This document shows positions 681 through 55,928 of a stretch of DNA of 64,000 nucleotides, one piece after another. The notes beneath the pieces are model-generated. The model ran no database searches, was not told the DNA's origin, and saw nothing but the letters and a program-made list of their open reading frames with translations. Numbering within the stretch: the stretch's first letter is position 1; every line of letters starts with the position of its first letter. The stretch spans positions 478,503 through 542,502 of the forward strand of contig CP064977.1 in the NCBI GenBank assembly GCA_016699465.1. Direction: 5' to 3'. Both the position numbers and the translations under genes were made by a program. This DNA comes from Candidatus Campbellbacteria bacterium. GTDB lineage: Bacteria; Patescibacteriota; Minisyncoccia; Phycocordibacterales; EsbW-18.

Positions 681-1103
681 TTATTTAAAATTTTTATTAT
701 CCATCGCTTCATTTGCAAGTGCATCGGCTTCAGCATTCTGCGCACGTGGAATATGTTTGAATGTAACATTTGGAAACGGCAAAATAAGCGCGCCGACTTT
801 TGCAAATTGGAGCTTGAGACCCGCATCTTTCACTTTGTATTCGCGGCGAAGCTGTTTGATAACGAGTTCGCTGTCCATGCGAACCTCAACATGCACGTCT
901 CCCCGCTTCTGCTGTGGAACAATACATTCAAGCTCTTGAAACGCGCGAATGAGCGCCTCGTATTCAGCCTGATTGTTTGTTGTTTCTCCAATATACGCGT
1001 GGCCACGCTTTATTGTTTTTCCGTCCTCAACAATAACAAAACCGATTCCCGCAGGTCCTGGGTTGCCTCGCGCTCCGCCGTCTGTGTATACGATGTATTT
1101 CAT
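681..1103 (-). CDS. rnhA: Ribonuclease HI
   Basis: The YTDGGARGNPGPAGIGFVI motif and the type 1 RNase H catalytic residue pattern are present. Confidence 0.85.
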   Translation of the reverse strand: MKYIVYTDGGARGNPGPAGIGFVIVEDGKTIKRGHAYIGETTNNQAEYEALIRAFQELECIVPQQKRGDVHVEVRMDSELVIKQLRREYKVKDAGLKLQFAKVGALILPFPNVTFKHIPRAQNAEADALANEAMDNKNFK

Positions 1104-1211
1104 TTTTCTATTTTAGCATGCCCAAAAACGTGAAACCGCCCTGTACAGCGATGCGCAGGGCGGGAGGACTATGTCCTAAGATTTTGAGGCCCAGGACTTA
1201 GTGATTGAGTA

Positions 1212-1817
1212 CTACTTGCGATATCGAAGGACCCACTCGTCGTCGAGGTTGAGCTCTTTGCTCGGGCTGTACCAGGAGTCGACGTGCCCGAGCCCGTCCC
1301 CGACGAGCTCGACGATGTGCACGAACGAAGCGCCCATCGAGATAATAATGCTCTTCGTCGCGACTCGAATCGACTCGCCCTTGGGCTGATCGTCGTAGGC
1401 CAGACGAAGTGCCGAACCGACTTCGGTCGGACAAGGCTCTAATCCGAGCTTCAGGATACGCACGATGAACATGTCGAAGCGTGGCGACTTGGTAAAGCCG
1501 ACACTCCGCGGAGTAACCCTTACGAGGTGGATGTCCTCCGCTCCATCATAGACACTCCGATCAGCAACACCGAGTGCATCGAGGTATCCCTTCACACCTA
1601 AGTGGTCGCCGATCCGGATGGTCTTCCAGACGGTAAAAACCTTCACCGCCTTCACCCCACACAGTTCACCGCGGTTGAACTTCTTGAGCTCCTCTATGAC
1701 GCGCACTCCTTCGGAGCCCGCAAGTTTCTCCGCGAGAGTCATGAGCGTGCCGAGGTACTCCTTCGGGACTCTCATGATCCATTCGATGAGACGGCCGAGC
1801 ATGTCATGATACGACAC
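1212..1817 (-). CDS. Hypothetical protein, GC-rich, compositionally atypical
   Basis: A 201 aa ORF with a GTG start preceded by AAAAGGAG at 6 nt spacing. Local GC is clearly above that of its neighbours. Confidence 0.5.
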   Translation of the reverse strand: MSYHDMLGRLIEWIMRVPKEYLGTLMTLAEKLAGSEGVRVIEELKKFNRGELCGVKAVKVFTVWKTIRIGDHLGVKGYLDALGVADRSVYDGAEDIHLVRVTPRSVGFTKSPRFDMFIVRILKLGLEPCPTEVGSALRLAYDDQPKGESIRVATKSIIISMGASFVHIVELVGDGLGHVDSWYSPSKELNLDDEWVLRYRK

Positions 1818-1882
1818 GGTCTGCTCCTTTTCTCTATCCCGAGAGCGGAACGCCGTCGGGTACTTCTGCAGAAAATCTACAT

Positions 1883-3664: not shown

Positions 3665-3666
3665 AG
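3639..3666. promoter_or_regulatory. 28 bp perfect palindrome ACTTTGTACCGATATATCGGTACAAAGT, a candidate operator
   Basis: A perfect inverted repeat sits between the TrpR-like gene stop and the recJ start. Its 20 bp core TGTACCGATATATCGGTACA is repeated exactly at 4081-4100 and 49141-49160. Confidence 0.55.
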
Positions 3667-4074
3667 TTATTTTTCAGTTAACCGGTATATTCTATGCCAT
3701 CGACCCCGACCTTGCGGTGGAAGACCTGCACGTAACATATATTCAATATCTTTCCAAAAATGCAAATTTCTCTTTTCAAGAAAGCAAACAAGTTGAGCGA
3801 TTCTTTTAAATTCCGTTGCTGCAGAAAACCGTTGGGCCGTTGAAATACTCAGACCAAGAATCTCACTCACCCTTCTCACCGGAACACCTTTTGATAACAA
3901 GTGAATTGCGGCAAGACGTTTTGCAAGCATAATTCGTTCGGTTTTTGTAAGCAGTCCGTGCACTAATAAAAGCGCATCCTTTGTTTCATTGGCACGAGAT
4001 ACGTTATGCACCAAATCACGAAAAATCGTTTGAAGAACTTTCTCGGAAATCTTTTTTCTTGAAACGTGCGGCAT
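3667..4074 (-). CDS. TrpR/YerC-family helix-turn-helix regulator
   Basis: The C-terminal part of the 218 aa track ORF starts at MPHVSRKK. It contains LLTKTERIMLAKRLAAIHLLSKGVPVRRVSEILGLSISTAQRFS, which fits the Trp-repressor/YerC HTH pattern. The upstream part of the ORF is low-complexity read-through. Confidence 0.6.
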   Translation of the reverse strand: MPHVSRKKISEKVLQTIFRDLVHNVSRANETKDALLLVHGLLTKTERIMLAKRLAAIHLLSKGVPVRRVSEILGLSISTAQRFSAATEFKRIAQLVCFLEKRNLHFWKDIEYMLRAGLPPQGRGRWHRIYRLTEK

Positions 4075-4080
4075 ACATAA

Positions 4081-4100
4081 TGTACCGATATATCGGTACA
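4081..4100. promoter_or_regulatory. 20 bp perfect palindrome TGTACCGATATATCGGTACA, a candidate autoregulatory operator
   Basis: It begins 7 bp upstream of the ATG of the TrpR/YerC-like gene, in the region divergent from the HIT gene. Confidence 0.55.
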
Positions 4101-4185
4101 GACTAATATAAAGTAGTAAACTAAAGGAAATATAAAGAACGTGGTCTTGTATTGAACCATATAAAAAGACTATACTAATCGGTAT

Positions 4186-4590
4186 ATGACAGACTGTATT
4201 TTTTGCAAAATCGTTTCGGGAGAGATTCCTGCAGAAAAAGTGTATGAGGACGAACACACTCTCGCCTTTTTGGACCTTCACCCGAGCAATCCAGGTCACA
4301 CACTTGTTGTACCAAAAGAACATTCACGCAACGTGTTGGATAGTCACCCAGATACCCTTACACACATGATTCATACTGCACAAAAAATTGCCGTGGTCTT
4401 AAAAAATATTGGAGCTGAAGGAGTCAATATCATTTCAAATAATGAAACCGCTGCAGGCCAGGTAATCTTTCACACACACCTGCATATCATTCCCCGCTAC
4501 ACAGATGACGGACTCGCACTATGGCATGGAAAACCATATCCTGAAGGTGAAATAGAAAAGATGGGAGAAAAAATACGGAATGCTCTCTAG
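4186..4590 (+). CDS. HIT-family (histidine triad) nucleotide hydrolase
   Basis: CIFCKI...FHTHLHIIP carries the HxHxHxx histidine triad. Confidence 0.85.
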   Translation: MTDCIFCKIVSGEIPAEKVYEDEHTLAFLDLHPSNPGHTLVVPKEHSRNVLDSHPDTLTHMIHTAQKIAVVLKNIGAEGVNIISNNETAAGQVIFHTHLHIIPRYTDDGLALWHGKPYPEGEIEKMGEKIRNAL

Positions 4591-4603
4591 GTAGGTACAA
4601 ACA

Positions 4604-4642
4604 AGCCCCGTTCCGCACGAATGCGGAACGGGGCTTTGTATT
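4604..4642. terminator. Bidirectional intrinsic terminator
   Basis: AGCCCCGTTCCGCA-cgaa-TGCGGAACGGGGCT is a 14 bp perfect stem followed by TTTGTATT. It lies between convergent genes. Confidence 0.6.
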
Positions 4643-4683
4643 CAACAGGTCTGGAATCTCGAAGGCAGGTCACCCAGAACCAC

Positions 4684-4968
4684 CTAAGGTTCCTTGGACA
4701 ACTCCCTGTTCGGCGAACCCCCATCGGAAAAAATGGGAGACCTCTCCGGAACCTCGACGCCGCAAATGGTATCGAGAACACTCTCGCCTGTCACCGGCTG
4801 CTCAACCTTCCGAAGCAGTCCCGGCGCATCGGCAAGAAGGACGCCGAGCTCCTCGCGACTCAGGCGGACAGTTCCACCATTGTCGTCCGCGATCACGAAG
4901 AAGCCTTCGTCATACGCGAGTGTCGGACAACAATCCGACGAATGACACAGGGTAATCGCGAATTTCAT
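4684..4968 (-). CDS. Hypothetical small protein, GC-rich, with a strong RBS
   Basis: A 94 aa ORF starting MKFAITL, preceded by AGAAAGGGGGTGGA before the ATG. GC is high and the gene is not conserved-looking. Confidence 0.45.
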   Translation of the reverse strand: MKFAITLCHSSDCCPTLAYDEGFFVIADDNGGTVRLSREELGVLLADAPGLLRKVEQPVTGESVLDTICGVEVPERSPIFSDGGSPNRELSKEP

Positions 4969-5177
4969 TCCACCCCCTTTCTGCACACCGCACTGGTGTG
5001 CGCTGTTGTATACGACTCTTCTGTTGCGGAGAATACCTGAAAAATAAAATCCTGTCAAAGCGAAAGGCCCCGAAGGGCCTTGAAACGGACATCTTCACGG
5101 GGCATAGCATGCTCCTTTCGTCGTACTCCACACCTGCCCTTCTTCCATAAAAGATACTACGCTCTCCTTTTTGTAAG

Positions 5178-6302
5178 TCAATCTTTGAGTGCGTCAATTC
5201 CGGGAAGTGTTCCTTGTGCCAAGAATTCCAACATGGCCCCACCCGCAGATGATGTAAATGTAAACGTTCCCGAAATATGCCCCTCAGCAAGTACTGCATC
5301 TGTGTCGCCACCACCAACAATACTTTCGGCGCGCGATGACGCAATAGCACGAGCACACTCTTGTGTTCCAACAGAAAATCCTTTTTCATACAATCCAAGT
5401 GGGCCATTCCACAATACAAATGCAGCACTAGAAACCACCTGTGCGAGGTGTGCGAGTGTTTCTGGGCCAGCATCCACAATGGTGTCATCTGGGCCAAGTG
5501 CTTCCGGCGTAAGCACGTGCTCTTTCCCATCTACACCAAGTGTGAGGACATCTGTGTACGTCGACACGTGCGGCATTGCCACAATAGTTCGAAGTACTTC
5601 CTCATTCACGGACGCAACTCGAGATGTTCCCACAGAAAATCCTTTTGTTTTAAGTAGCGAGTTTCCCGACACACCAAACACAAAAACACTATCCATATGT
5701 GGAGCAAGAGCGGTAATAATCGGAAGTTTTGTTTCAGGTTTTGCACCTCCCACAATAAGAACAGCTGGGTGCTGTGGATGAAATGCTTCAGAGAGGTGCT
5801 CATACTCTTCTGCAAAACGTATACCCATATAGCTTGGAATGTAGTGTGGAACGCCAACGATTGATGCGTGCACGCGATGCGCAGAGGTAAAATCATCATT
5901 TACAAATATATCAGCAAGCCCAGCAAGTTTTTGTGCAAACGCTTCATCATTTTTTTCTTCTTCTGGAAATTGACGAATATTTTCAAGACACACAATATCT
6001 CCATCCTGCATATGCTCCAGCTTCTCTTTTCCCACCTCATCAAATGGCGATTCCAGAAACGAGACCGGCACGTGTTGTGCAAGAATATCTGCGACTGGTT
6101 TTAATGATTCACCTTCTACAGACACGTGTCCTACGAGAATTGTTTTAGCACCCTTTCCTTTTAAAAAACGGAGTGTTGGAAGATTTCCTAAAGCTCGCGA
6201 CGTGTCAGCAACACTTCCCCGCTCCATGGGAACATTTAAATTTGCACGAACCAACACACGCGTGCCCGGTAAAATTGTTGCTTCGGTAATAGATTTCAAC
6301 AT
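5178..6302 (-). CDS. pgk: Phosphoglycerate kinase
   Basis: Full-length PGK signature, including the RANLNVP N-terminal region and the GGGDT..A..EG C-terminal motifs. Confidence 0.95.
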   Translation of the reverse strand: MLKSITEATILPGTRVLVRANLNVPMERGSVADTSRALGNLPTLRFLKGKGAKTILVGHVSVEGESLKPVADILAQHVPVSFLESPFDEVGKEKLEHMQDGDIVCLENIRQFPEEEKNDEAFAQKLAGLADIFVNDDFTSAHRVHASIVGVPHYIPSYMGIRFAEEYEHLSEAFHPQHPAVLIVGGAKPETKLPIITALAPHMDSVFVFGVSGNSLLKTKGFSVGTSRVASVNEEVLRTIVAMPHVSTYTDVLTLGVDGKEHVLTPEALGPDDTIVDAGPETLAHLAQVVSSAAFVLWNGPLGLYEKGFSVGTQECARAIASSRAESIVGGGDTDAVLAEGHISGTFTFTSSAGGAMLEFLAQGTLPGIDALKD

Positions 6303-9248: not shown

Positions 9249-11096
9249 TCATTCTGGAGTAAGTGTTGCTTCATACGATACAAAATCACTAGTTACTGAA
9301 AGTGGTGCACTCGTGTACGGCTGATATCCCGATTTTGAAACAGATACGGTGTACACGCCGTCTGAAAGACCAGAAAATGTCACCTGACCAGGAGGAACGC
9401 ACTCTGAAGTAAACGTGAACGAGATATCAGAAATAGTCGGCGTAACCGAAACATCATCGGTTGCCAAAAAAACTTTATACCTAAAATACCTGTTCATGTT
9501 GTGTATTGGATTAATATTCTGATCCGCAAGCGTGTAGTACGTACCTGTTGTTCCGTCGGGACCCAAAAAATTCCACGTTGTCGTCGCCGCATCATTACTA
9601 GTGGCAACTTGTAACCGAACAGCATTTTGCCCTGCAAGAGGCGGCTGATCTTCGGACTGCCATGCAATTCGATAAAAATTACTTGGTGAAGCAACGTCAA
9701 AAATTGATGATGTTAAGTTTCCTGACGGTGTATATGTTCCCGCAAAACGTACGAGCGTTAACACGCCCGCGGGCGCACTTGTTTCTATACCAGCGTCATG
9801 TGAACTATAATTTGAACCCCCGGACCACAACTCTTCACCAGAACCACCCGACCAATCCGTCTGTCGCAAAAATCCACGACCAGTTGTCTGTGTTTCTCCT
9901 CCAGAAATTTCAACATCAGCTTCAGAAATTGGTAATCCCGTACCGCTATCTTTTACTGTCACCAACAACGCATTGGGGTCAGCTGGACCAACAACAACAC
10001 GAACGTCAAGATTTGAATTTGGGGCAATAATAGGAGGAAGAAGCGGGATAAGTCCGAGAAGTTGGTGAGTCCCATCATTAACCGAGAGTGTGTACGTGTC
10101 CCACTCAAGATCATTAATAACTTTTTCCCCAACATAATTTGTTGTGTGTGTCTGGTAGTATTTGTTCACGTCTGGACTTGTTCCTATTAATTTACTTCCC
10201 CGCACACCAACACTCACACTTGGAACAACCGTGCATGTTTGCGTAACACTTTGTATACTCAGCGAACTCAAAAGATCGATTGAAAAACTAATCTGCGTTA
10301 CCTGCTGTTGTGCAACTGTTGCAAAAGGTTTTGTTGGGTTTGGATTACCTGTTGTTCCTTCGTACGTTTGGTCCGAAGAGTACCCTTCTTTGCTCACAAA
10401 CACCTGGTATGCACCCGCACCAGGAGGAATATCCACAAGTTGGAGCACCCCATTGGCGTCCGTCACATCATCAATACGAATGTGTGGAGTTACTTGATTA
10501 TTTTCAACGCGCACATCAGCAGCTTGTACGGGTACCCCGTTGGCATCAAATACTCGAATAAAGAGCGCCCCGTTTGTTGACGCCATCTCAAGATTTTTTG
10601 GACTCACACGAGTCGTAAATATTGCTGAAGAAAAATTTCTACATGCCGCACACGTGATCTTTGCTTCAACGAGCTTATAGTCTGCAGGAGAAATATCATT
10701 GGGAGTTCCGCCGAGCACTCCATCAAACGGATCGTCAATGTTTCGAACTGTTGTCGTCACGGTAAACGTAATACCGTCACGCACAAGTGTTTGTATGTGT
10801 GGAACCAATCCTGAGGGAATACTGTTCACCACACCGACTTTTGCATATGGCATATTTCGAATAATTTCAAACTGCTCAGTTGCAAGTGACGACGCAACGA
10901 GGTTGACCCGCGATGAATCAATAACATTAAACAGTGTTATGTATGCTTGGTATAACCCAACTGCAATAATCAAAAAAAGTGCCGACGCAATGAGCGTTTC
11001 AACAAGTGTAAATCCTTTTTTTGTGTACCCCACAACACGTAACACGCAATATGTATTCGTACCTTTTTTTATTTTGTTACATGCTTCAAGTTTCAT
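9249..11096 (-). CDS. Large prepilin-type protein (pseudopilin or pilus tip protein)
   Basis: KKGFTLVETLIASALFLIIAVGL is a prepilin N-terminus, followed by a long beta-rich extracellular region. Confidence 0.7.
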   Translation of the reverse strand: MKLEACNKIKKGTNTYCVLRVVGYTKKGFTLVETLIASALFLIIAVGLYQAYITLFNVIDSSRVNLVASSLATEQFEIIRNMPYAKVGVVNSIPSGLVPHIQTLVRDGITFTVTTTVRNIDDPFDGVLGGTPNDISPADYKLVEAKITCAACRNFSSAIFTTRVSPKNLEMASTNGALFIRVFDANGVPVQAADVRVENNQVTPHIRIDDVTDANGVLQLVDIPPGAGAYQVFVSKEGYSSDQTYEGTTGNPNPTKPFATVAQQQVTQISFSIDLLSSLSIQSVTQTCTVVPSVSVGVRGSKLIGTSPDVNKYYQTHTTNYVGEKVINDLEWDTYTLSVNDGTHQLLGLIPLLPPIIAPNSNLDVRVVVGPADPNALLVTVKDSGTGLPISEADVEISGGETQTTGRGFLRQTDWSGGSGEELWSGGSNYSSHDAGIETSAPAGVLTLVRFAGTYTPSGNLTSSIFDVASPSNFYRIAWQSEDQPPLAGQNAVRLQVATSNDAATTTWNFLGPDGTTGTYYTLADQNINPIHNMNRYFRYKVFLATDDVSVTPTISDISFTFTSECVPPGQVTFSGLSDGVYTVSVSKSGYQPYTSAPLSVTSDFVSYEATLTPE

Positions 11097-11106
11097 GTAC
11101 TATTCT

Positions 11107-12315
11107 TTAAATTCCTGATGAAAGTGAGTAGATTGGTGAAATCATTGATATTGCAAAAAATCCAACCGCCGCACCAATGATAACCATCAGCACCGGTTCG
11201 ATAATTGTGGACATATCTTTTGTTCGCTGGTCCACTTCTGTTTCAAAAAAGGTGGCAATCTGCAAAAACATGTCTGGCACCTTTCCTGTTTCTTCTCCAA
11301 CCGCAACCATTTCAGTCACCATAGGTGGATACAGGTGTGGGTAGCGTGCAAAAACAGCAGAAAGCTGGGTTCCTTTTTGAATTTCTGTTTCCGCTTCCAA
11401 AAGCACCGCTTTGTAATAGGAATTTTGAAGCACTTCAGTTGTGATAGTAATTGCAGACACAACATCCACACCAGAAGAAAGGAGTGATGCAAATGTTCGC
11501 GACATACGCGCAGAGTTTGTTTGTTGAACAAGTCCCTTAATCACCGGCATGTGCATAATGGCGGTTTCAAATAGTCGTTTCCCTTTTTTCGTACGAAATA
11601 CTTGCACACACACAAGAACAAACCCAATCATTCCACCTATGTACAGAAGTGGGTGCGCAGCGAGCCCGTCTGAAACAGTAACGATAAATTGCGTTGTCAT
11701 TGGCAAATCAACATTCATTTCTTTAAATGTTGAGGTAAGTGTCGGCACAACGTACATGAGCATGAGAATACCGATGATTACCATGAGCGTCATGATAATC
11801 GTTGGGTACATCATTGCCCCACGAATACGTCGACGCAGAGCAAAACTTCTATCCATCTGTTCTGCAGTAATGCGCAACGACTCTCCGAGTTTTCCCGATT
11901 CTTCTCCTGCGCGAACCATTGCAATAAAGAGTGTTGAAAACACATCTGGAAATTTTTCAAAGGCTGCAGAAAGAGGTGTTCCTTTCTGAACTTCCGAGCT
12001 AATAACTGAGAGTGTCTCGCGAAACTTACGACTCTCTGATTGCTTCTCCATAATTGAAATGCCACGCGACACAGTGAGACCTGCATCAACCATTGTTGCA
12101 AGATTTTTTGCAAAGGTAATCTTTTCAGTAAGCTTGATACGACTAAAATCCAAATTGAATTTTTGAAGCCACGACTTCTCTTTTATTTCATTTGCAGAAA
12201 TAAGTGTTTCTCCCTCACTAGAAAGTTGTTTGGCAAGTGCAAATGAATCTTCCGCTTCTCCGGTTTTTTCGTACACTTCACCTGTTGTAGAAACCGCCTT
12301 GTACTTTAAATGCAT
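11107..12315 (-). CDS. pilC: Type IV pilus assembly platform protein PilC (GspF family)
   Basis: Two GspF-type repeats and a polytopic membrane topology. The likely start is the internal Met (MHLKYKAV). Confidence 0.85.
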   Translation of the reverse strand: MHLKYKAVSTTGEVYEKTGEAEDSFALAKQLSSEGETLISANEIKEKSWLQKFNLDFSRIKLTEKITFAKNLATMVDAGLTVSRGISIMEKQSESRKFRETLSVISSEVQKGTPLSAAFEKFPDVFSTLFIAMVRAGEESGKLGESLRITAEQMDRSFALRRRIRGAMMYPTIIMTLMVIIGILMLMYVVPTLTSTFKEMNVDLPMTTQFIVTVSDGLAAHPLLYIGGMIGFVLVCVQVFRTKKGKRLFETAIMHMPVIKGLVQQTNSARMSRTFASLLSSGVDVVSAITITTEVLQNSYYKAVLLEAETEIQKGTQLSAVFARYPHLYPPMVTEMVAVGEETGKVPDMFLQIATFFETEVDQRTKDMSTIIEPVLMVIIGAAVGFFAISMISPIYSLSSGI

Positions 12316-12381
12316 GTTTCTATTATCGCACACGTTTGCATAAAAAAATTCCACATGAAGTGGATTTGTGTGCATTTTAGA

Positions 12382-12405
12382 GAATTTTTGTAACAACAAA
12401 AATTC
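12382..12405. promoter_or_regulatory. Palindromic operator GAATTTTTGT-aaca-ACAAAAATTC upstream of pilC
   Basis: 10 bp perfect inverted arms. A second copy with one mismatch lies upstream of pilB at 14401-14424, with about 35 nt of conserved context. Confidence 0.5.
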
Positions 12406-12466
12406 GTGATACAGAGCGAGTCTCTATTTTGTAGAAGCTCCTGCAGGCACGACGGTGCCGGAAGAA

Positions 12467-12492
12467 GAAAACCGCCAACGGGCGGTTTTTGT
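12467..12492 (-). terminator. Intrinsic terminator after pilB, nested inside a 17 bp long-range inverted repeat
   Basis: AAACCGCC-aacg-GGCGGTTTTT. The outer arms CTCTATTTTGTAGAAGC (12422-12438) and GCTTCTACAAAATAGAG (12493-12509) enclose it. Confidence 0.55.
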
Positions 12493-12521
12493 GCTTCTAC
12501 AAAATAGAGGCGAGCGTAGAG

Positions 12522-14270
12522 CTACTCCGTGACCACACGCAACACCTCCTCAAGGGTTGTAAGTCCTTGCACGGCCTTGTACACACCGTCTTCAATCATC
12601 GTCATCATCCCCTCTTTCTTTGCTTGCTCTTCCATTTCTTCCATCGACGCACGCTTAATCATGAGTTCGCGTAGTGCGCTTGAAACCTTGAGTACTTCAT
12701 GAATACCGATACGCCCCTTATACCCATCATCTGTGTCTGTAACATCTTTTGGTCTATAAAACGGGACATCTTTCCATGTCGCATTCTTTGCAACCAATCC
12801 TTCTGTCTTCAAAAAGCCCATCATTCGATCAAGATCAACCGATCTTCCTAGTGCTTTCAACTCATCAGCCGAAAGTGTGTACTTCTCTTTTCGTGCAAGC
12901 ACTCGCACCAAACGCTGTCCAACAATAACCTTGAGTGTTGATGCAATGAGAAATGGCTCTGCACCCATGTCCAACATTCGTGGCACGGCACCCGCAGCCG
13001 AGTTGGTGTGAATTGTTGAGAGCACAAGGTGACCAGTAAGCGCCGCGTTAATCGCGAGCCCAATTGTTTCACCGTCACGAATTTCTCCAACCATAATAAT
13101 GTCAGGATCTTGTCGAACAAGCGCACGTAGTCCATTACCAAACGTCATACCTATTTCTGGTTTTACCTGCGTCTGATTTATTCGTGGCATCTGATACTCA
13201 ATCGGATCTTCAATAGTAGAAATATTGACATCGGGCGTATTCAAAATATCGAGAACAGTATACAGCGTCGTGGTCTTTCCTGAACCCGTTGGACCAGTTG
13301 CGAGAATTAATCCTGTTGCTTGCTTTGTTGCCCAGTGGAGTGCCTCAAGTCCTCCTCCATGAAATCCGAGCGTCTCCAACGTAAAGCCTGATGCTCCTTC
13401 ATGCAAAATACGCATCACAATTTTTTCACCGTAGTAAATTGGAAGGGTTGAAACACGAAAACTCACACGCTCGCTCTCAATATTCATTTTGAATCGCCCA
13501 TCTTGCGGAAGTCGTTTTTCGTCCAGTTTCAAATTTGAAAGCACTTTAATACGCGCAACGATTCCGGCCGTTACTTGTTTCGGAAGCGTCATCGCATCAT
13601 GTAGTAAGCCGTCAATGCGATACCGAATCAACAAATCTTTTTCCATTGGTTCAATGTGAATATCTGAAGCGTTTTCAACAACGGCGTGACGAATAAGTGT
13701 TTCAACAATACGAATCACCGGAAGATCTTCGGCCAATTTTTTGAGTGCTTCTCCAGACGCGTTCTCTCCCACATTTTCAGATGATACGGAAAGCGCAGTG
13801 GCTTCATTTTTGAGAATATCGCCAAATTCCAACTTCAAACTTCGCTGGTATTGAATGAGCGCATGCTTAATCGAGTCAACATCCGTTAATCGTGGAAGAA
13901 TGGTTAGCCCTGTTTTCTTTTTGACAAAATCAATTGCCTTCAAGTCCTGCACGTCAAGCATGGCAACTTCCAGATCTTTTTCTGTTACCCGAAACGCAAT
14001 AATATTATTTGAACGAGCAATCGGTTCGGGAATAAGTGAGAGTGTTTTAAAATCTATCGTTTCATTTTTTAAATCAATAAACGGAATGCCAATAACGTGC
14101 GCCTTCGCACGACGCAAATCGTCTTCGGGAATAATTCCTTCTGACACAATCAAATCCTCAAACGAGATTTTTTTCTTTGTCGCCTCAGCTTCAAGCTCTT
14201 GGGCTTTTCCAAGAGAGAGCATTTTGGTATCAACCAGAAACTGAATGAGTTGTTGTATGTCAAATTGCAT
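12522..14270 (-). CDS. pilB: Type IV pilus assembly ATPase PilB (GspE family)
   Basis: Walker A GPTGSGKTTTLY, the Asp box and the His box of GspE/PilB ATPases are present. Confidence 0.9.
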   Translation of the reverse strand: MQFDIQQLIQFLVDTKMLSLGKAQELEAEATKKKISFEDLIVSEGIIPEDDLRRAKAHVIGIPFIDLKNETIDFKTLSLIPEPIARSNNIIAFRVTEKDLEVAMLDVQDLKAIDFVKKKTGLTILPRLTDVDSIKHALIQYQRSLKLEFGDILKNEATALSVSSENVGENASGEALKKLAEDLPVIRIVETLIRHAVVENASDIHIEPMEKDLLIRYRIDGLLHDAMTLPKQVTAGIVARIKVLSNLKLDEKRLPQDGRFKMNIESERVSFRVSTLPIYYGEKIVMRILHEGASGFTLETLGFHGGGLEALHWATKQATGLILATGPTGSGKTTTLYTVLDILNTPDVNISTIEDPIEYQMPRINQTQVKPEIGMTFGNGLRALVRQDPDIIMVGEIRDGETIGLAINAALTGHLVLSTIHTNSAAGAVPRMLDMGAEPFLIASTLKVIVGQRLVRVLARKEKYTLSADELKALGRSVDLDRMMGFLKTEGLVAKNATWKDVPFYRPKDVTDTDDGYKGRIGIHEVLKVSSALRELMIKRASMEEMEEQAKKEGMMTMIEDGVYKAVQGLTTLEEVLRVVTE

Positions 14271-30106: not shown

Positions 30107-30232
30107 GTCCTATGCCGCAGTGGTGTAGGACCTTCTTCTTGTCTAACTTTACTCAGTAAGAGAGGATTTGGTCACGTGTAATTTTCTGCTGAAAATTCAC
30201 GCGACCCCGGCTCGGCCCGTCGGCCTCCGCCT

Positions 30233-30249
30233 TTCAAATCCTCTCCTGC
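30233..30249. repeat. 17 nt inverted copy of the tRNA-Leu 3' end (TTCAAATCCTCTCCTGC)
   Basis: It is the exact reverse complement of the T-loop-to-acceptor segment of the tRNA-Leu gene 56 bp away. Confidence 0.7.
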
Positions 30250-30304
30250 TCGTTACATACTGAATACAAAAAAGAATGGCATAGGCCATTCTTTTTTGAT
30301 TCTG

Positions 30305-30388
30305 TGCGCAGGAGAGGATTTGAACCTCCAAGCCCTTGCGGGCGCTACCACCTCAAGGTAGTGCGTCTACCAATTTCGCCACCTGCGC
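30305..30388 (-). tRNA. tRNA-Leu (GAG)
   Basis: Cloverleaf built by hand with a long variable arm. Anticodon loop CTTGAGGT/ TTGAGGT, with GAG in the centre. Confidence 0.85.
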
Positions 30389-33378: not shown

Positions 33379-33519
33379 ACCTCTATTGTGACTGTTGAAT
33401 ATGAAATGTAAATAAGGTATCGTGTACGGACACAGCAAGCATGTTGTGTCGTTGGACGCTTGGCCCCGCTTGCGCTAAAGCTTCGGCTGGGCACGTCAGT
33501 TGATAGAACAAGTATATTT

Positions 33520-33592
33520 GGGCGCTTAGCTCAGTTGGTAGAGCAACTCTTTTACACAGAGAAGGTCGGGGGTTCGAATCCCTCAGCGCCCA
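33520..33592 (+). tRNA. tRNA-Val (TAC)
   Basis: Cloverleaf built by hand. Anticodon loop TTTACAC. One A-A mismatch at the base of the anticodon stem. Confidence 0.7.
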
Positions 33593-33596
33593 CAGT

Positions 33597-33640
33597 GATA
33601 AAATCTGGTCGAGTTTACTCGGCCAGATTTTATTATTTTC
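33597..33640 (+). terminator. Intrinsic terminator after tRNA-Val
   Basis: AAAATCTGGTCGAG-tttact-CGGCCAGATTTT followed by ATTATTTT. Confidence 0.55.
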
Positions 33641-33898
33641 GTGCTAAGGGATTCAAAAGGCGCAGACACACCTCCTGTGAAAGATGAAATGCCGAGCCAT
33701 GGTCGCGAACACTTTACATTTTGGCGCGCATGCGACAAAAAGCTTAGTGATTCATAACCGAATCCCCCACACAAACAAAGAAACGAGGCATGCAGTGTTC
33801 TGCAACTATTGGTTTGTGTAGCGCTGAGGGATTCGACAAAGAAAATTTCTTTGAAACGAACAAAAAATATTGACCAGAAGCAGGTTTTTTGTTTTTTG

Positions 33899-33970
33899 TC
33901 CTCCCGGCAGGAATCGAACCTACATCAAGAGCTTAGAAGTCTCCTGTTTTATCCATTAAACTACGGGAGG
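33899..33970 (-). tRNA. tRNA-Arg (TCT)
   Basis: Cloverleaf built by hand. Anticodon loop CTTCTAA. Confidence 0.7.
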
Positions 33971-34273
33971 AATGCTTTTGCCAAAAAATTTAAACTCTTT
34001 GTACGTTTTTCTTCGATGACAATTTGCACAACGCACAGTGCACTTCTTTATTTCTTTCAAAACCGACTCCCAAGAATAGTGTCCTGAAAGCATTTTTGAT
34101 ACCGATTTAAACTTCTCTGCACGGTTTTTATGATCAAAATCCAATACTATAGGATCTTGTTCACCGCAGTCAACACACGACTTTGTAGACAAAAACTCAA
34201 ATAATTTTCTTCGCACACCAATTCGGTGACGTTTTTGTGCTTTATAGAGGTCTTCTCGATGCTTGTAAGGCAT
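33956..34273 (-). CDS. HNH endonuclease
   Basis: CVDCGEQDPIVLDFDHK...N...CANCHRRKT beta-beta-alpha-Me/zinc motif. The last 5 codons overlap the 5' end of tRNA-Arg. Confidence 0.65.
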   Translation of the reverse strand: MPYKHREDLYKAQKRHRIGVRRKLFEFLSTKSCVDCGEQDPIVLDFDHKNRAEKFKSVSKMLSGHYSWESVLKEIKKCTVRCANCHRRKTYKEFKFFGKSIPPVV

Positions 34274-34315
34274 ATGGAGGATTATACTACAAAGTTCTAA
34301 CCCTACCACTAGCGT

Positions 34316-34635: not shown

Positions 34636-35190
34636 TTATTTCTTTAATGCTATTGAGAGTGCTGCACGCACAACCCACAACGGAGCACCTTTCGCTCCAT
34701 CTACACGCTCCACTGTTTCAAGTGTTGCCTGAGTCACCCGTGCATGAAACGGAAGCGAATCAAGAAGTCCAAGAAGTTGTGTCATTTGTTTCCACGATCC
34801 CTCAGAAAGAATGCTTGCCACAAACGTCCCCTCACGTGTGAGCGGGTCTTCCCCTTCTACTTGAACTTGTAGCACGGAAACGGGAGTTCCAACCACACGA
34901 CGAAGTCCTTCAATATCTTCAATAATTGAAATGATATCATTCGGCGTTTTAAAAAATGTATTTACCAACGCCCGCTCTTCTTTTAAACTCGAAAGAACTC
35001 CTGCGGTATCTCGTACGTTTCGTTCGCGCTCAACTTGCACTAACAGTTCTTCTTGGGTGAGAAGAATTTCAGCATGATACTGATTCGTACGAATAAGTAC
35101 CCACACGTACATACCGACACACACAACCGCCACAAGAGCTGCTGCATACACCGCGTAGTATCGTTTTATTTTTTGAACTACTGTTGTCAT
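34636..35190 (-). CDS. pilO: Type IV pilus assembly protein PilO-like
   Basis: N-terminal TM segment, a coiled-coil and a C-terminal domain, in the operon position after pilN. Confidence 0.55.
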   Translation of the reverse strand: MTTVVQKIKRYYAVYAAALVAVVCVGMYVWVLIRTNQYHAEILLTQEELLVQVERERNVRDTAGVLSSLKEERALVNTFFKTPNDIISIIEDIEGLRRVVGTPVSVLQVQVEGEDPLTREGTFVASILSEGSWKQMTQLLGLLDSLPFHARVTQATLETVERVDGAKGAPLWVVRAALSIALKK

Positions 35191-35885
35191 GGTGTTATAC
35201 GCTGCACCTCAGGGGACGTCGTACCACCCAGAGTCCCTTGTGTTGTCGACGACGTAAGAGTGCTCACTGTGCGCACCGACGAGGATGTTGCCGTTGTTGT
35301 AGATGATTCAAGATATTCAATAGGATTTCCTATTGCAGTAAGTACAAGTGTTATCACAAAATCAATATCTGCACTTCGTGCCAAACTTGAAACCGGAACA
35401 TCTACTCGAGAAAAAAGTGGTGATGAGCGAAGTGAATCACCAAGCGCAATGAGCGCCGTGCGAGTTTGGGCACGCCCCGTAAGTGTTACTGCGACTTCTG
35501 CCCCCTTGGCACCATACGATATATTGTGCACAGAAACGCCTGTAGGAATACGGGGCATAACATCTTGTAAAATAGATGTGAGAGACCTCTGAGAAAGCAC
35601 GCCTTGCAATAAGTCGGAGCGATCCTGTAAATCAGTAAGTACCTCTGTGCCACTCTGCTTACGCTGTAAATCAACAAGTGTTTTTGTCGCAGCAAGCTGG
35701 TCTTTTAAACCACCAATAGCTGATGTGGTGACTATCCACGAAGGAACCAAAAAAAGACCCAGAAGCACAAGTGAACAAATACCAAACACTAACACCACCA
35801 AAAGAATTCTTCTCCGGTGTTCCCATGCAACAGTGCGTTGATTTTTTATTGGGAGCAAATTAATCACATGTGTATTGTAACGCAT
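35187..35885 (-). CDS. pilN: Type IV pilus assembly protein PilN-like
   Basis: INLLP motif at the N-terminus, a TM segment, and a periplasmic domain with a Ser/Thr-rich tail. Confidence 0.6.
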   Translation of the reverse strand: MRYNTHVINLLPIKNQRTVAWEHRRRILLVVLVFGICSLVLLGLFLVPSWIVTTSAIGGLKDQLAATKTLVDLQRKQSGTEVLTDLQDRSDLLQGVLSQRSLTSILQDVMPRIPTGVSVHNISYGAKGAEVAVTLTGRAQTRTALIALGDSLRSSPLFSRVDVPVSSLARSADIDFVITLVLTAIGNPIEYLESSTTTATSSSVRTVSTLTSSTTQGTLGGTTSPEVQRITP

Positions 35886-35938
35886 CGCACACTTTCTGAA
35901 ATACCCCGCGCACGTGGAATACTTTTTTGTAACAAACG

Positions 35939-37033
35939 CTATTCGTGAAGTGCGAGACCTATTGCGGACGCATATCCCAACGATTCAGCAAACGACATTT
36001 CCGGAACATACCCCTCCAAAGAAAAAGCATTCACCCACACATTTCCAACTTCAACAGGAATGTGCAACTGAGCAGAGAGATAATCCGCAAGACCGTGCAT
36101 ATTTGCATTCCCCCCAGAAAGAAATACTCGCTCAATAGGAATACGCGGGGCACTGGCATCTTTACTATCTTTGTGCGTCTGCCAATAGACGATGTACCGA
36201 TCTAATTCCGTGGTTATATTTTTTACGAACGTATCAAGTCCTCCACGAATGGCCGCATCTCCTGCAAAACGCATTCCTTCTTCATTTTTTATTCGCACTA
36301 TTTCTTCTTCTGTCATTTCTGGACGCGCCATACGCATCGCATCATCAACACTGTCTCCTCCAATTGCAACGGTCGCGGTAAAACGCACAGATTGTCCACG
36401 AACAACCGAGATACCAGAACGCGTTTTACCAATATCAACAACCATACATGCTCCCATAAAAGATTTTGGGACAATGGCACGTGCAATTGCTTGTGCCTCT
36501 ATTTCAAGGGACAGTGGTTCAAGACCTGCTGACATAAGAAGATCTGTGTACTCCTGTGAAGCGGTTTGTGGATACGCAGATACAGATACCAAACGCTGAT
36601 CTCCAACAGGTGGCGTATTTTGCACTACATCAAAATCAAATACCGCCTCTGCTGGAGCGAGTGGCACATTTTCTGCCAACTTAAACTCGAGAACATCTCG
36701 CACCTCTTTGTCGGAAATGTTTGCCGGAACGTACGCAGGAAAAATGTACCCCTCTTCCTCAGGAAGTGATGCTCGCACAAAGTGAAGCACGTGCTCTTCT
36801 CGAAAACGTGATAATACCTCAATGAGTTTTAGTGCATCAACCACCCTTCCATTAACAACAACTCCCTTTGGAATAGTTGCCGCTCCATAGCCACTCACTC
36901 GTCTGCCGTGCGTATGACTTTTTGAAAATGTTAAAAATTTTACAGAGTGATCAGATACATCAATACCAGCAGCTGGCGTTGTGAGATACGCTGGTGTTGG
37001 AAAAAGAGAAAGAACTCGTGACGAAAAGGTCAT
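35939..37033 (-). CDS. pilM: Type IV pilus assembly ATPase-like protein PilM (actin-like fold)
   Basis: FtsA/PilM-like architecture with ATP-binding motifs (GIDVSDHSVKF, DIGKTRSGISV). Confidence 0.75.
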   Translation of the reverse strand: MTFSSRVLSLFPTPAYLTTPAAGIDVSDHSVKFLTFSKSHTHGRRVSGYGAATIPKGVVVNGRVVDALKLIEVLSRFREEHVLHFVRASLPEEEGYIFPAYVPANISDKEVRDVLEFKLAENVPLAPAEAVFDFDVVQNTPPVGDQRLVSVSAYPQTASQEYTDLLMSAGLEPLSLEIEAQAIARAIVPKSFMGACMVVDIGKTRSGISVVRGQSVRFTATVAIGGDSVDDAMRMARPEMTEEEIVRIKNEEGMRFAGDAAIRGGLDTFVKNITTELDRYIVYWQTHKDSKDASAPRIPIERVFLSGGNANMHGLADYLSAQLHIPVEVGNVWVNAFSLEGYVPEMSFAESLGYASAIGLALHE

Positions 37034-40361: not shown

Positions 40362-40447
40362 GGAGGAGTCGGATAGTGGTTTATTCCAGCGCACTTGAAA
40401 TGCGCCGTGCCCACAAGGCACCGTGAGTTCGAATCTCACCTCCTCCG
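40362..40447 (+). tRNA. tRNA-Ser (TGA)
   Basis: Cloverleaf built by hand. Anticodon loop CTTGAAA and a long variable arm. Confidence 0.85.
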
Positions 40448-40449
40448 CA

Positions 40450-40491
40450 ACGATTCACAAGAAGTGCCCTTCGGCACTTCTTGTGAATCGT
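40450..40491. repeat. Perfect 19 bp stem hairpin with a CTTC loop immediately 3' of tRNA-Ser
   Basis: ACGATTCACAAGAAGTGCC-cttc-GGCACTTCTTGTGAATCGT. No U tract follows. Confidence 0.7.
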
Positions 40492-40502
40492 CTACTAGGG
40501 CG

Positions 40503-40518
40503 AGGTGAGATTCGAACG
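40503..40518. repeat. Inverted copy of the tRNA-Ser T-arm/acceptor segment (GAGGTGAGATTCGAAC)
   Basis: It is the exact reverse complement of GTTCGAATCTCACCTC from the tRNA-Ser gene. Confidence 0.65.
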
Positions 40519-40617
40519 ACGGAGCGATATTTTGTCAGTAGACAAAATCGCGAGTCGGTGCCCAGACAAATTTTTTTGACGACAAAATTTAGTCGCGGGA
40601 GAAAAACGTACTCGTGG

Positions 40618-40633
40618 TCTCACCTCCTCCGCA
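40618..40633 (+). repeat. Direct 16 nt copy of the tRNA-Ser 3' end (TCTCACCTCCTCCGCA), a candidate att-site scar
   Basis: It is identical to the last 16 nt of tRNA-Ser, 171 bp downstream. An intrinsic terminator follows at 40648-40668. Confidence 0.65.
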
Positions 40634-40765
40634 CCTGATGCAAAAATGCCCCGCAAGGGGTATTTTTTGTGTCAGGAGGACGAGATTCGAAAGTCGGACC
40701 GAGCAAAGCGAGGGAGACGGGGTCGAGAACACTTAGGATTTTTGATTCCAATGGAAGCAAAAATA

Positions 40766-40802
40766 CTTAGTGATTCGTGACCGAATCTCACCCCTACCGC
40801 CA
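40766..40802 (+). repeat. Degenerate second copy of the tRNA-Ser 3' end with a conserved CTTAGTGATTC arm
   Basis: CTTAGTGATTCGTGACCGAATCTCACCCCTACCGCCA. A homologous unit follows tRNA-Val at 33746-33775 (CTTAGTGATTCATAACCGAATCCCCCAC). Confidence 0.5.
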
Positions 40803-54203: not shown

Positions 54204-55928
54204 ATGGTTATTTTTGACGAAGACAAACAAAATAAAAAATTTCAACAACTACGCGAACAAGAAGAAGAGGAGTTAATGCAGGTGCTTTCGCAAAAATATA
54301 CTCTTCCCTACGTTGACCTCTCGGCAACCCCCATTAACCCAGACGCACTCATTCTTGTTCCTGAAGCATTAGCTCGTGAGGGCATGCTTGCTGCTTTTGG
54401 AATAACTGGAAAAGTTGTCTCTGTTGCTGTACACGCACCAGAAAATACAGCCACAAAGTCCGCTCTTGCCGAGCTGGAAAATCGCGGATACAAAACAACT
54501 CTCTTTCTCACTTCAACAAAAAGTTTGGAATTTATTTGGGATAGATACAAAGACCTCTCCTACAGTGCCGGAAGCAAAAAAGGAATGCTTGATGTGGGTA
54601 GCGAAGACATGACTGAGCTCGTTTCCAAAGTTCGCCACCTTGAAGATATTAAAAAACTCTTTGAAGAGGCGCTTGGCATGCAAAAAACGCACCGCATTTC
54701 TCGTATCATTGAGGTGCTCCTTTCCAGTGCCCTTGCCACCAAAGCATCCGACATTCACATAGAACCCGAAGAAACCAGCGTGCGTATTCGTATGCGTCTG
54801 GACGGTGTGCTTGCTGACGTTGCAAATATTGACGCAGAAACATATCATCTCGTACTCTCTCGTTTCAAATTACTTTCTGCACTTAAACTCAACGTACAAA
54901 GTGAGGCGCAGGACGGACGATTCAGTATCAACTTCAAAGATGTCAGCATTGAAATTCGTACCTCTATTCTCCCAGGACAGTACGGCGAGTCTATTGTGAT
55001 GCGTATTCTCAACCCTGATTCTATTTCTGTGTCCATCGAAAAACTCGGCATGCGCGATGATTTGTTTGCGGTAGTAAATCAAGCGATTGCAAAACCAAAC
55101 GGACTCATTCTCACCACGGGTCCAACCGGTTCAGGAAAAACGACGACACTCTACGCGTTTCTCAAAAAAGTGCACACGCCCGACATTAAAATCATCACCA
55201 TCGAAGATCCAATTGAGTACCACTTGAAAGGTGTCGTACAAACACAAGTGGACAGCAATCACGACTACACATTCCAAAGCGGATTGCGCGCCGCACTTCG
55301 ACAAGACCCTGACATCATCATGGTGGGTGAAATTCGAGACAATGAAACGGCCGAAATTGCGATTCACGCCGCACTCACTGGTCACCTTGTGTTCTCAACA
55401 CTCCACACCAACTCCGCAGCGGGTGCATTCACTCGACTCATCGACGTTGGTATTAATCCCCGCATCCTTGGCTCTGCGCTCTCACTCGCACTTGCACAAC
55501 GACTTGTACGAAAACTATGCGAAACCTGCAAACAAGAAGTACCACTTGAGGGCGATGAGAAAGAAAAAATCGAACGCGTACTTGGTACGGTTGTGGATAC
55601 AACAAAAATTGCAGGACTTCAGCGAGAACGGGTGTGGCACGCAAGCGAAAAAGGATGTGAAGCCTGCAATGGTCTTGGCTACAAGGGACGCATGGGGTTG
55701 TATGAAGGAATTGTGGTGAACTCAGCAATCGAAGAAATTGTTGAATCATCACCGAGCGAGCGCGAGATTAGAAAAGTTGCCGACGCACAGGGATTGCTCA
55801 CTATGACCCAAGACGCAGTGATCAAAGTACTCGAAGGAAAAACAACCACGGACGAAATTATGCGCGTGGTTGATTTGAGCGTTGAAACAACAACCCCAGA
55901 AACTCCAACACCACTTCCTGAAATCTAA
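54204..55928 (+). CDS. Second type IV pilus / type II secretion ATPase paralog (GspE/PilB family)
   Basis: Walker A GPTGSGKTTTLY and GspE Asp/His boxes. The C-terminal zinc-finger-like CETC...CEAC motif is present. Confidence 0.85.
   Translation: MVIFDEDKQNKKFQQLREQEEEELMQVLSQKYTLPYVDLSATPINPDALILVPEALAREGMLAAFGITGKVVSVAVHAPENTATKSALAELENRGYKTTLFLTSTKSLEFIWDRYKDLSYSAGSKKGMLDVGSEDMTELVSKVRHLEDIKKLFEEALGMQKTHRISRIIEVLLSSALATKASDIHIEPEETSVRIRMRLDGVLADVANIDAETYHLVLSRFKLLSALKLNVQSEAQDGRFSINFKDVSIEIRTSILPGQYGESIVMRILNPDSISVSIEKLGMRDDLFAVVNQAIAKPNGLILTTGPTGSGKTTTLYAFLKKVHTPDIKIITIEDPIEYHLKGVVQTQVDSNHDYTFQSGLRAALRQDPDIIMVGEIRDNETAEIAIHAALTGHLVFSTLHTNSAAGAFTRLIDVGINPRILGSALSLALAQRLVRKLCETCKQEVPLEGDEKEKIERVLGTVVDTTKIAGLQRERVWHASEKGCEACNGLGYKGRMGLYEGIVVNSAIEEIVESSPSEREIRKVADAQGLLTMTQDAVIKVLEGKTTTDEIMRVVDLSVETTTPETPTPLPEI

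Follow-up and report, generated by a model that had tools for sequence, protein, structure and literature searches.

A widespread family of small, structured non-coding cassettes behind tRNA genes of Paceibacteria

Why should an intact tRNA gene be followed by a degenerate copy of its own 3' end, next to a sequence that recurs behind a different tRNA? The question arises at the tRNA-Val locus of the window analyzed here, the 64,000 nucleotides (nt) of CP064977.1 (GCA_016699465.1; Candidatus Campbellbacteria bacterium) at positions 478,503-542,502 of the forward strand, which otherwise carries housekeeping genes of the Paceibacteria type (L19, a pseudouridine synthase, PilMNO, RuvX, RuvB, Pol I, PGK, TIM, and a Mur ligase). 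A first-pass annotation had likened the pattern to integrase arm-type and core-type sites and had suggested a family of tRNA-targeting integrative elements whose cargo is mostly lost. Our results show that a complete copy, V1, and a fragment lie downstream from tRNA-Val, both from a family of small, non-coding elements with a strand-specific structure. The family is widespread in Paceibacteria (candidate-phyla-radiation bacteria) in the form of non-coding cassettes of about 100 to 190 bases; no description of it was found in the literature searched, and we file it as previously undescribed, a new variant within tRNA-targeting mobile DNA.

Behind tRNA-Val, tRNA-Ser, and tRNA-Leu the same parts follow one another in the same order: the tRNA with its tail (T1, from C56 of the T-loop to the tRNA end), a long, often terminator-like hairpin (hp1), the tail in antisense (T'), a core (X) that measures about 65 to 115 nt at these three loci, and the tail once more in sense (T2). 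T1, hp1, and T' form a single extended hairpin, with z-scores of −6.9 for Val, −11.8 for Ser, and −12.1 for Leu. The unit T'-X-T2 folds into a closing helix, P1, in which T' pairs with T2, and a three-way junction of helices P2 and P3 (z = −6.7 for unit L behind tRNA-Leu, −4.65 and −3.8 for units S2 and S1 behind tRNA-Ser, and −1.2 for V1). The parts are as follows; tRNAs were called with ARAGORN, and the bit scores of units come from R1, a covariance model built on the RNAalifold consensus of a 19-unit alignment, A2.

33520..33593, plus strand: tRNA-Val(tac) (ARAGORN; Rfam tRNA, 70.8 bits)
33575-33593, plus strand: T1 of tRNA-Val, its last 19 nt from C56 to the end, copied by the unit
33597..33640, plus strand: hp1 of Val, terminator-like, with an A-run before it and a T-run after it
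33636..33772, plus strand: whole unit V1 (T'-X-T2), type 1; R1 89.4 bits, E = 3e-23
33641..33656, plus strand: T' of V1, antisense tRNA-Val tail GTGCTAAGGGATTCAA, 5' strand of P1
33707..33759, plus strand: helix P3 of V1, from the fold; its pairs are conserved and compensated in the family
33707-17 and 33742-59, plus strand: 5' strand (GAACACTTTAC) and 3' strand (GCTTAGTGATTCATAACC) of that helix, the latter with CTTAGTGATTC at 33743-53
33759..33772, plus strand: T2 of V1, degenerate sense tRNA-Val tail CGAATCCC-CCACAC with a 7-nt internal deletion
33815..33836, plus strand: orphan antisense tRNA-Val tail TGTGTAGCGCTGAGGGATTCGA, a 16-nt exact core within 22 nt
40362..40448, plus strand: tRNA-Ser(tga) (ARAGORN), with T1 at 40430-40449 and hp1 at 40450-40491
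40498..40634, plus strand: unit S1, with a type 3 core, GAACGACGGA..GAGTCGGTGCC; fold z = −3.84; weak R1 match, 30.8 bits
40498-40517 and 40618-40633, plus strand: T' of S1 and its exact 16-nt sense tRNA-Ser tail
40648-40669: strong terminator after S1
40670..40802, plus strand: unit S2, type 1; R1 100 bits; fold z = −4.65
40675-93, 40727-37, 40765-82, and 40782-40802, plus strand: T', the two P3 strands, and T2 of S2, with CTTAGTGATTC at 40766-76
30152..30388, minus strand: tRNA-Leu(gag) locus, with the tRNA at 30304-30388, hp1 at 30262-30303, and T' at 30231-49
30152-30254, minus strand: unit L, type 1 with a short P3; T2 at 30152-70; R1 87.3 bits; z = −6.68

The extended hairpin of the Val locus (33572-33660) folds at −21.5 kcal/mol with DNA parameters (z = −6.85) and that of the Ser locus (40427-40520) at −40.3 kcal/mol. 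V1 starts 43 nt past the end of tRNA-Val, and the tRNA-Ser locus holds two units in tandem, the type 3 unit S1 and then the type 1 unit S2. All sequences quoted in the first-pass annotation are present, within about 3 nt of where it had placed them, and the resemblance that it saw to the 3' end of tRNA-Val is real: compared with the tail CGAATCCC(TCAGCGC)CCACA, the segment CGAATCCCCCACAC at 33759-33772 lacks the 7 nt in parentheses. Its GCTNAGGGATTCRA motifs are likewise present, at 33641-33656 and 33815-33836; they are antisense tRNA-Val tail and not further core sites. Sense and antisense copies are likewise combined at the Ser locus (antisense copy at 40498-40517, sense copies at 40618-40633 and 40782-40802), and tRNA-Leu, which the annotation had not listed, follows suit on the minus strand (antisense 30231-49, sense 30152-70). 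The tRNA-His, tRNA-Lys, and both tRNA-Arg genes of the window are without such an arrangement behind them. Neither X nor T2 follows the orphan tail copy, and 33814-33897 shows no significant fold (z = +0.41); the copy is either what is left of a second unit or the result of a rearrangement.

The association with tRNA genes holds well beyond the window. Among 166 tRNAs in loci anchored on ribosomal protein L19 from 74 genomes, 22 have an antisense tail copy of 11 nt or more on the downstream side and none has one on the upstream side; for sense copies of that length the numbers are 34 downstream and 5 upstream. R1 matched 37 units in the window and these relatives, about 31 of which start 39 to 54 nt past a same-strand tRNA; the remaining matches are second units of tandem pairs or lie at a locus edge, and no units were found in the non-Paceibacteria loci (L041-L074). 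In this unbiased set, about a fifth of the tRNAs have a unit behind them, and the genomes are streamlined, at less than 1 Mb. A metagenome scan with a pattern taken from the interior of X alone (GAAAGNCGSAS..RAGNCGGGGTCG..GTGACC) matched at least 120 loci, and R1 rerun on the metagenome loci gave at least 143 units in 100 loci, which are the basis of the covariation statistics below. Among the matches listed, a same-strand tRNA ends 21 to 91 nt upstream of 97 of 120 metagenome units, with about 39 anticodons represented and all amino acids but Lys; 14 units have no upstream same-strand tRNA in the locus, and 5 of these 14 follow genes for transfer-messenger RNA (tmRNA). Unit orientation is always that of the tRNA, and in one same-strand tRNA cluster (L182) a unit stands behind nearly every tRNA. 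A viral origin was considered and rejected: of 65 pattern matches on viral contigs, only L081 gave a convincing R1 match (64.4 bits, with a weaker tandem), and L103 and L110 were marginal. The type 1 units behind Paceibacteria tmRNA genes are those of L140, L181, L215, L224, and L229, where SmpB is a frequent neighbor.

The core itself is a conserved structure. Its consensus, GAAAG-GNC-GGAG...CGAG-GN'C-GGGGTCGCG...GTGACC, or more fully gGAnTnGAAaG-nCGgAG-(P2)-cGAG-nCGGGGTCGcg-(P3)-GTGACC-gAnTCc, describes a three-way junction, and its GGAG/CGAG motif, a potential tandem G-A, recurs in hp1. RNAalifold on the 19 units of A2 gave 21 pairs, 14 of them with compensatory changes; in the 143-unit alignment all 21 pairs show double (both-side) changes, 92.7% of cells hold a pair against 72.6% in shuffles, and the covariation signal is lost when partner columns are slid by 1 to 3 positions. 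The middle pair at the base of P2, for example, is CG in 52, GC in 39, AU in 34, and UA in 9 units. A G:U pair in the base of P3 is kept in 125 of the 143 units, and G:U makes up 7.3% of pairs. The sense strand folds better than the antisense strand by 9.2 kcal/mol on average and is favored in 139 of 143 units, so it is the tRNA-sense strand whose folding is under selection. Hairpin tips are mostly C-GNA-G triloops, C-GACG-G, or C-AGCA-G, and the count of GCGNAGC is 64 for the sense strand against 1 for the antisense strand; loops of the C-GNA-G class are especially stable in DNA. One subfamily carries a small conserved hairpin, P0 (..GCAAACTGCTTTGC..), exactly between the complement of the acceptor and that of the T-stem, and the outline of this variant looks tRNA-like. 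Rfam 15 at the gathering threshold returned only the seven tRNAs across the whole window and, at E ≤ 10 in both unit regions, only chance hairpin-type matches and tRNA tails; the miRNA-like hairpin matches in the window are spurious and stem from the T1-hp1-T' structure. A hammerhead mapping of the three-way junction was rejected, as the junction strands of the consensus do not fit it.

This structure also accounts for the arm shared by the Val and Ser loci. The sharing reported in the first-pass annotation was confirmed: exact copies of CTTAGTGATTC stand at 33743 and 40766 and nowhere else in the 64 kb, and with up to one mismatch there are five matches against 1.17 expected, a number reached in none of 100 shuffles. 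Its interpretation as an arm-type protein site did not survive. In the long-P3 variant common to V1 and S2, CTTAGTGATTC forms the 3' strand of P3 and pairs with GAACACTT(A/T) or GAACACTTAG; it is found only in that variant and is absent from short-P3 units such as unit L. The claim fails because the arm is part of a conserved structured element, an outcome that the first-pass annotation had itself named as counting against it.

The arms of each unit match its own tRNA. T2 matches the tail of its own tRNA at 15.1 positions on average against 5.3 for the tRNA of another unit, and T' at 10.7 against 5.8. The left edge of the T1/T2 repeat is invariant at C56 (...GGTT-C in the tRNA, ...GTGAC-C in the unit), and its right edge is the end of the tRNA gene, giving 18 to 19 nt, or 21 to 22 nt with an encoded CCA, occasionally extended by several nt; where the repeat is intact, T2 in most units is an exact copy of 18 to 22 nt from C56 to the gene end, and the tRNAs are intact. 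Since the repeat tracks the gene end and includes CCA only if encoded, it was copied from the gene and not from mature tRNA, and since its length varies with the gene end, there is no fixed-length target duplication. T' varies from about 10 to 22 nt, holds the antisense of non-palindromic T-loops, and in tRNA-Ala units has an A opposite U70 and not the tRNA's own G3; together with hp1 it forms an unbroken palindrome across the tRNA/flank boundary. T' is a true inverted copy of the tail.

Several other origins for these arms were tried and rejected. That T' is the tRNA's own 5' acceptor and T-stem strands, as in a deleted tRNA copy, is contradicted by its antisense of non-palindromic T-loops (ATTTGAA for TTCAAAT) and by its A opposite U70 or U64 where the tRNA has G. 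An inverted tRNA pseudogene does not fit, as the antisense match always ends in the T-loop and never reaches the rest of the tRNA. The 5' segment GGATTCGA resembles the 5' end of a tmRNA, which raised a tmRNA or two-piece tmRNA as a candidate; ARAGORN finds no tmRNA in the window, and the resemblance arises because TTCGAA is palindromic and the segment is an antisense T-loop. A retron or other reverse-transcribing element, or copying from mature tRNA, was set aside, as no reverse transcriptase was found and T2 lacks CCA unless gene-encoded, and a casposon- or CRISPR-like duplication because the repeat length tracks the gene end and no shared terminal inverted repeats were seen.

Comparison of copies strongly suggests that the core moves. 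Most tellingly, X cores behind different tRNAs are 93 to 96% identical (Ser-gct/Leu-cag, Arg-tct/Trp-cca, and Ser-gct/Ala-ggc); the similarity spans GAAAG to GTGACC but does not extend to T' or T2, nor in many cases to the spacer, and the arms fit each copy's own tRNA. Near identity of X at different tRNAs, combined with arms that fit the local one, strongly implies that X, often with hp1, is a mobile, non-autonomous module whose arms are re-templated on each new tRNA. At orthologous tRNAs some genomes have a unit and others an empty site, with the sequence past T2 corresponding to the original flank and terminator, and identical tandem repeats of T-spacer-T'-X occur at L142, L144, L160, L009, and L081. 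These empty and filled sites, the tandem arrays, and the repeat from T-loop to gene end bear out the proposal in the first-pass annotation of a family of inserted elements that target tRNA genes; its arm-type sites, lost cargo, and HNH cargo are not supported. At L009 an Arg-type T' stands with a Val-type T2, possibly an uncorrected host switch.

Type 1 is not the only core found here. The type 2 core (GTACTG..GTAAG) and the type 3 core of S1 occupy the same position, which makes the T-loop junction a shared target. Type 3 units (T'-GAACGACGGA-hairpin-GAGTCGGTGCC...) have a T-loop junction of their own, with the sense copy starting near position 59-60, and one also lies behind the tRNA-Leu of L003 (10504-10634, minus strand). 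A third small element type, GGTGTACTG-NNNN-TGTAAG-NNNN-GAGAGTTC, stands directly before a tRNA tail copy at L030 (about 4150-4235, minus strand, behind tRNA-Val at 4300-4373) and L035 (4160-4330), and up- or downstream of the type 1 units of L208, L256, and L211; a mini-hairpin, GCGTA(A/C)TCGCG, lies between GTGACCGA and the T-stem of T2 in type 1 units of L140, L150, L151, L167, L177, and L208. This third type and the mini-hairpin are nested insertions at the same T-loop position.

tRNA loci of these genomes show other irregularities. At L019 (5740-5981) the 5' two-thirds of a tRNA-Arg(tct), with acceptor, D, and anticodon arms, runs into an X core and a partial tail copy, so that X occupies the T-loop place of a decayed tRNA-Arg copy, and about 14 nt further on lies an intact tRNA-Arg(tct), so that the first copy appears to have been disrupted at its T-loop. 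The tRNA-Arg(tct) of the window (33898-33970, minus strand), which adjoins the orphan tail copy, is inverted relative to close relatives; tRNA-Val and tRNA-Arg(tct) form a same-strand tandem, 15 to 50 nt apart, in L001, L003, L004, and L009. Relatives also vary in how Val/Arg(tct) and tRNA-Leu are ordered and oriented, which suggests that these tRNA loci are often rearranged.

The explanation that we favor, to which we give an even chance, is that the cassettes are small non-autonomous elements that insert after the GTTC of the T-loop, bring a replacement tail, and probably act as a folded single strand. Such an element would enter the tRNA gene on the sense strand, directly past the universal G53-T54-T55-C56 (GTTC) of the T-loop, and would supply a replacement tail and terminator (T1 and hp1), leaving the tRNA intact, with the displaced original tail becoming T2. 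T' would pair with a tail T in the free form, the target, and the inserted form alike, a pairing that, by analogy with attC, the CTX-phi attP(+) site, and the ends of IS200/IS605, might present the junction as a duplex beside the three-way junction. Correction templated by the hairpins, across hp1 and X, could keep T' complementary to the local tail, a step that is inference only. The enzyme would act in trans and might be a recombinase of the tyrosine or serine type, or an HUH transposase for single-strand DNA.

On whether the folded strand is DNA or RNA, this reading must be weighed against a structured non-coding RNA, in which T'-X-T2 is transcribed with or just behind the tRNA as a mimic of the tRNA top half joined to a three-way-junction domain, and has a cellular role. 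P1 would then stand in for acceptor and T-stem, and the spread to many tRNAs would be secondary; possible roles include control of tRNA maturation, with T' pairing to its own tail or to T2, or processing by RNase P or RNase Z as a tRNA-like RNA. We consider this unlikely, although much fits it: the strong covariation specific to the sense strand with its conserved G:U and share of G:U pairs, the constant orientation with the tRNA, the cloverleaf-like placing of P0 between acceptor and T-stem complements, the cluster with a unit behind nearly every tRNA, and the intact X where the outer T2 has decayed. The context of the units favors single-stranded DNA and makes a plain RNA gene less likely. 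At Val and Leu, hp1 with its T-run separates the tRNA from T', and a strong terminator lies directly before S2; at all three, no promoter-like site was seen between this barrier and the unit on the sense strand. Read-through RNA, moreover, would let T' trap the 3' half of the tRNA in a hairpin of about 35 to 40 bp, and the tip loops are of the GNA class. Further counts against an RNA gene are the lack of any Rfam match even at E ≤ 10, the patchy presence among orthologous tRNAs, the near-identical X at unrelated tRNAs, and the T' of tRNA-Ala units, which gives A-U and not the G3:U70 identity pair. On balance, DNA is tentatively favored over RNA as the folded strand.

A number of observations weigh against the single-strand insertion model as a whole. 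No free or circular form was observed, and the model does not explain how a change of T1 and T' to another tRNA could avoid producing a lethal chimeric tRNA. The 7.3% of G:U pairs and the location of P0 at the acceptor/T-stem boundary suit RNA as well as or better than single-stranded DNA, and orientation against the local gene strand, used as a replication-strand test for single-stranded DNA, showed no bias (25% vs 22%). In window units L, V1, and S2, X is intact where the outer T2 has decayed, which could point to a host function of X. The enzyme is also missing from what was searched: no recombinase or transposase was found among the window open reading frames (ORFs) scanned, ORFs within 3 kb of 120 units included no recurring integrase, HNH, or other travelling protein, the recurrent neighbor families being syntenic housekeeping ones (UPF0102, L19, SmpB, RluA, RbfA, MiaA, and ParB), and no Y1/Y2 HUH transposase was seen among scanned window ORFs or neighbor-ORF clusters.

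A bolder form of the insertion model, which we put forward tentatively, is that the cassettes constitute a new class of enzyme-less, trans-mobilized element. Its target would be the GT-psi-C of every tRNA and tmRNA gene, recognized by a self-carried complementary arm of 10 to 22 nt; a built-in replacement tail would heal the gene, the guide arm would be re-templated for each new tRNA, and the acting form would be a folded single strand. In an RNA version, the cassette would mimic the tRNA tail and either compete with the 3' half of the neighbor tRNA or supply it.

Very improbable, and already largely refuted, is the reading along the lines of the first-pass annotation, by which the repeats would be attL/attR scars and arm-type sites of classical integrase-driven islands that lost integrase and cargo after integrating into tRNA genes. 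A direct repeat from T-loop to gene end with a regenerated tRNA is a hallmark of islands that integrate into tRNA and tmRNA genes, and both features are present here; at L205 a 5.3-kb island with a large serine recombinase does lie between tRNA-Tyr and its unit. Yet the more than 180 units are uniformly small (R1-matched stretches of about 60 to 220 nt, mostly 100 to 155), none encloses an integrase, and there are no intermediate sizes that keep one, so the idea that cargo was mostly lost does not fit; the interior is a conserved, compensated three-way junction and not decaying cargo, the proposed arm is a helix strand, and an antisense tail copy is foreign to classical att sites. The inserts of L205 and L179 look like separate elements that inserted at the same tRNA and have displaced the unit downstream. 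The L205 island (483-5902) encodes a Schlafen AlbA_2/HATPase_c_4 protein and a large serine recombinase of 509 amino acids, the latter overlapping the tail of the tRNA at its 3' end, and at the far end of the island TAGGTTCG, the 5' half of a T-arm, is followed by 22 unrelated nt and then hp1; L179 has a 1.1-kb insert at the equivalent position.

Nor do the genes that had been suggested as residual cargo belong to the cassettes. The HNH gene next to the Val locus is the following feature:

33956-34309, minus strand: HNH-type protein of 117 amino acids (CxxC...DFDHKN...CANCH), with a weak Pfam zinc-binding match only

The gene ends with its stop inside tRNA-Arg(tct), an overlap of 15 nt with the 5' end of the tRNA. 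The sole homologue of the protein among the fetched, unit-bearing loci (about 2 Mb) is at L031, near a tRNA with a unit, and HNH was rejected as cargo. The supposed GC-rich micro-genes (for example, ORFs 33460-33687 and 40423-40638) merely overlap GC-rich structured units; the mechanical ORFs of 44 to 75 amino acids at 33460-33687, 33684-33821, 40423-40638, and 40646-40780 lie wholly over such units and are most likely not genes. Elsewhere in the window there are type IV pilus genes (9249-14270, 34636-37033, and 54204-55928), which encode PilM/N/O, two PilB-like T2SSE ATPases, and a protein of the prepilin type that carries a CarboxypepD_reg domain; candidate-phyla-radiation bacteria typically have such machinery, which is relevant to DNA uptake.

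Least probable of all as a full explanation is a replication by-product without element or function, in which template switching at terminator hairpins extends palindromes and reverse-copies the tRNA tail: the continuous T1-hp1-T' palindrome across the tRNA/flank boundary and the variable length of T' agree with it, but it leaves unexplained the conserved X with its invariant nucleotides and covariation, the near identity of X at different tRNAs, the sharp boundary at C56, and the restriction to one class of bacteria, with no matches in L041-L074. Template switching may still be the source of the matching between T' and the local tail.

tRNA genes are classic landing sites of islands and prophages, and here they are used by a tiny, structured cassette without a protein. 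The family offers a clean natural example of an element whose two arms are both programmed by the target and, for structural work on RNA or single-stranded DNA, a new structure with strong covariation, and it may serve as a marker for rearrangement of tRNA loci in candidate-phyla-radiation genomes. It also calls for caution in annotation, as units yield spurious small ORFs and tRNA-fragment matches. If the arm is truly a guide, the cassette would be a compact, re-targetable insertion device.

Among known systems, the islands that integrate into tRNA and tmRNA genes are the obvious point of comparison. Williams reportedly sorted such islands and prophages into sublocation classes in 2002, among them one with a T-loop crossover. 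The ssrA islands of Dehalococcoides are a tmRNA-integrating example (PMC3146451). As in such islands, the cassettes target the 3' part of the gene, which is regenerated, the displaced tail appears as a direct repeat from T-loop to gene end, and copies accumulate in tandem at one gene. The differences are that the insert is only about 100 to 190 bp and encodes no integrase (none was found within units, and the lone large serine recombinase, at L205, lies in the separate 5.3-kb insert), that it carries an inverted tail copy and a conserved single-strand structure, and that one cassette family serves nearly all tRNA species and not one. The cassettes are not miniature inverted-repeat transposable elements (MITEs) in the sense of shared terminal inverted repeats and a fixed target-site duplication, as their inverted arms differ between copies with 93 to 96% identical X, and the length of the repeat varies with the tRNA end, including CCA, in place of a fixed duplication. 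The transposing tRNA introns of the Thermoproteales (archaea), said to have been described by Fujishima and colleagues in 2010, are also short, similar inserts at many tRNA genes, including in the T-loop, and have a segment complementary to the flanking exon; those introns, however, interrupt the tRNA and need splicing, whereas the cassettes lie behind a duplicated tail and an intact tRNA, and in Bacteria.

Other parallels are found among elements that move as single strands. With the ends of IS200/IS605, their miniature derivatives, the palindrome-associated transposable elements (PATEs), and the HUH elements of the IS91 family, the cassettes share strand-specific hairpins and an internal segment that pairs with the flank at the cleavage site; like them, the cassettes may insert just 3' of a fixed short motif, without a target duplication of constant length. 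GTTC is a known target of the IS91 family; it is also G53-C56 of every T-loop, and the left edge of the cassette always follows it, at C56, with a repeat length that tracks the gene end, though the repeat could equally be carried by the element. In contrast to these elements, the pairing segment of the cassettes is 10 to 22 nt and not 4 to 5, a downstream copy of the target is carried, and the core has no recognizable similarity to known ends, with no Y1/Y2 seen. Integron attC sites and the attP(+) of CTX-phi, which exist as recombination sites only in a folded single strand, differ from the cassettes in that no RYYYAAC/GTTRRRY box or dif-like core is found in the cassette consensus, the junction of the cassettes lies at the inner end of a helix beside the three-way junction, and their arms are tRNA-specific. 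What attC and attP(+) share with the cassettes are paired inverted segments that hold the junction, a structure that is kept while helix sequence varies, one favored strand, arrays of short units, and an order of target core, then inverse core, structured spacer, and core, as a single-strand crossover would give.

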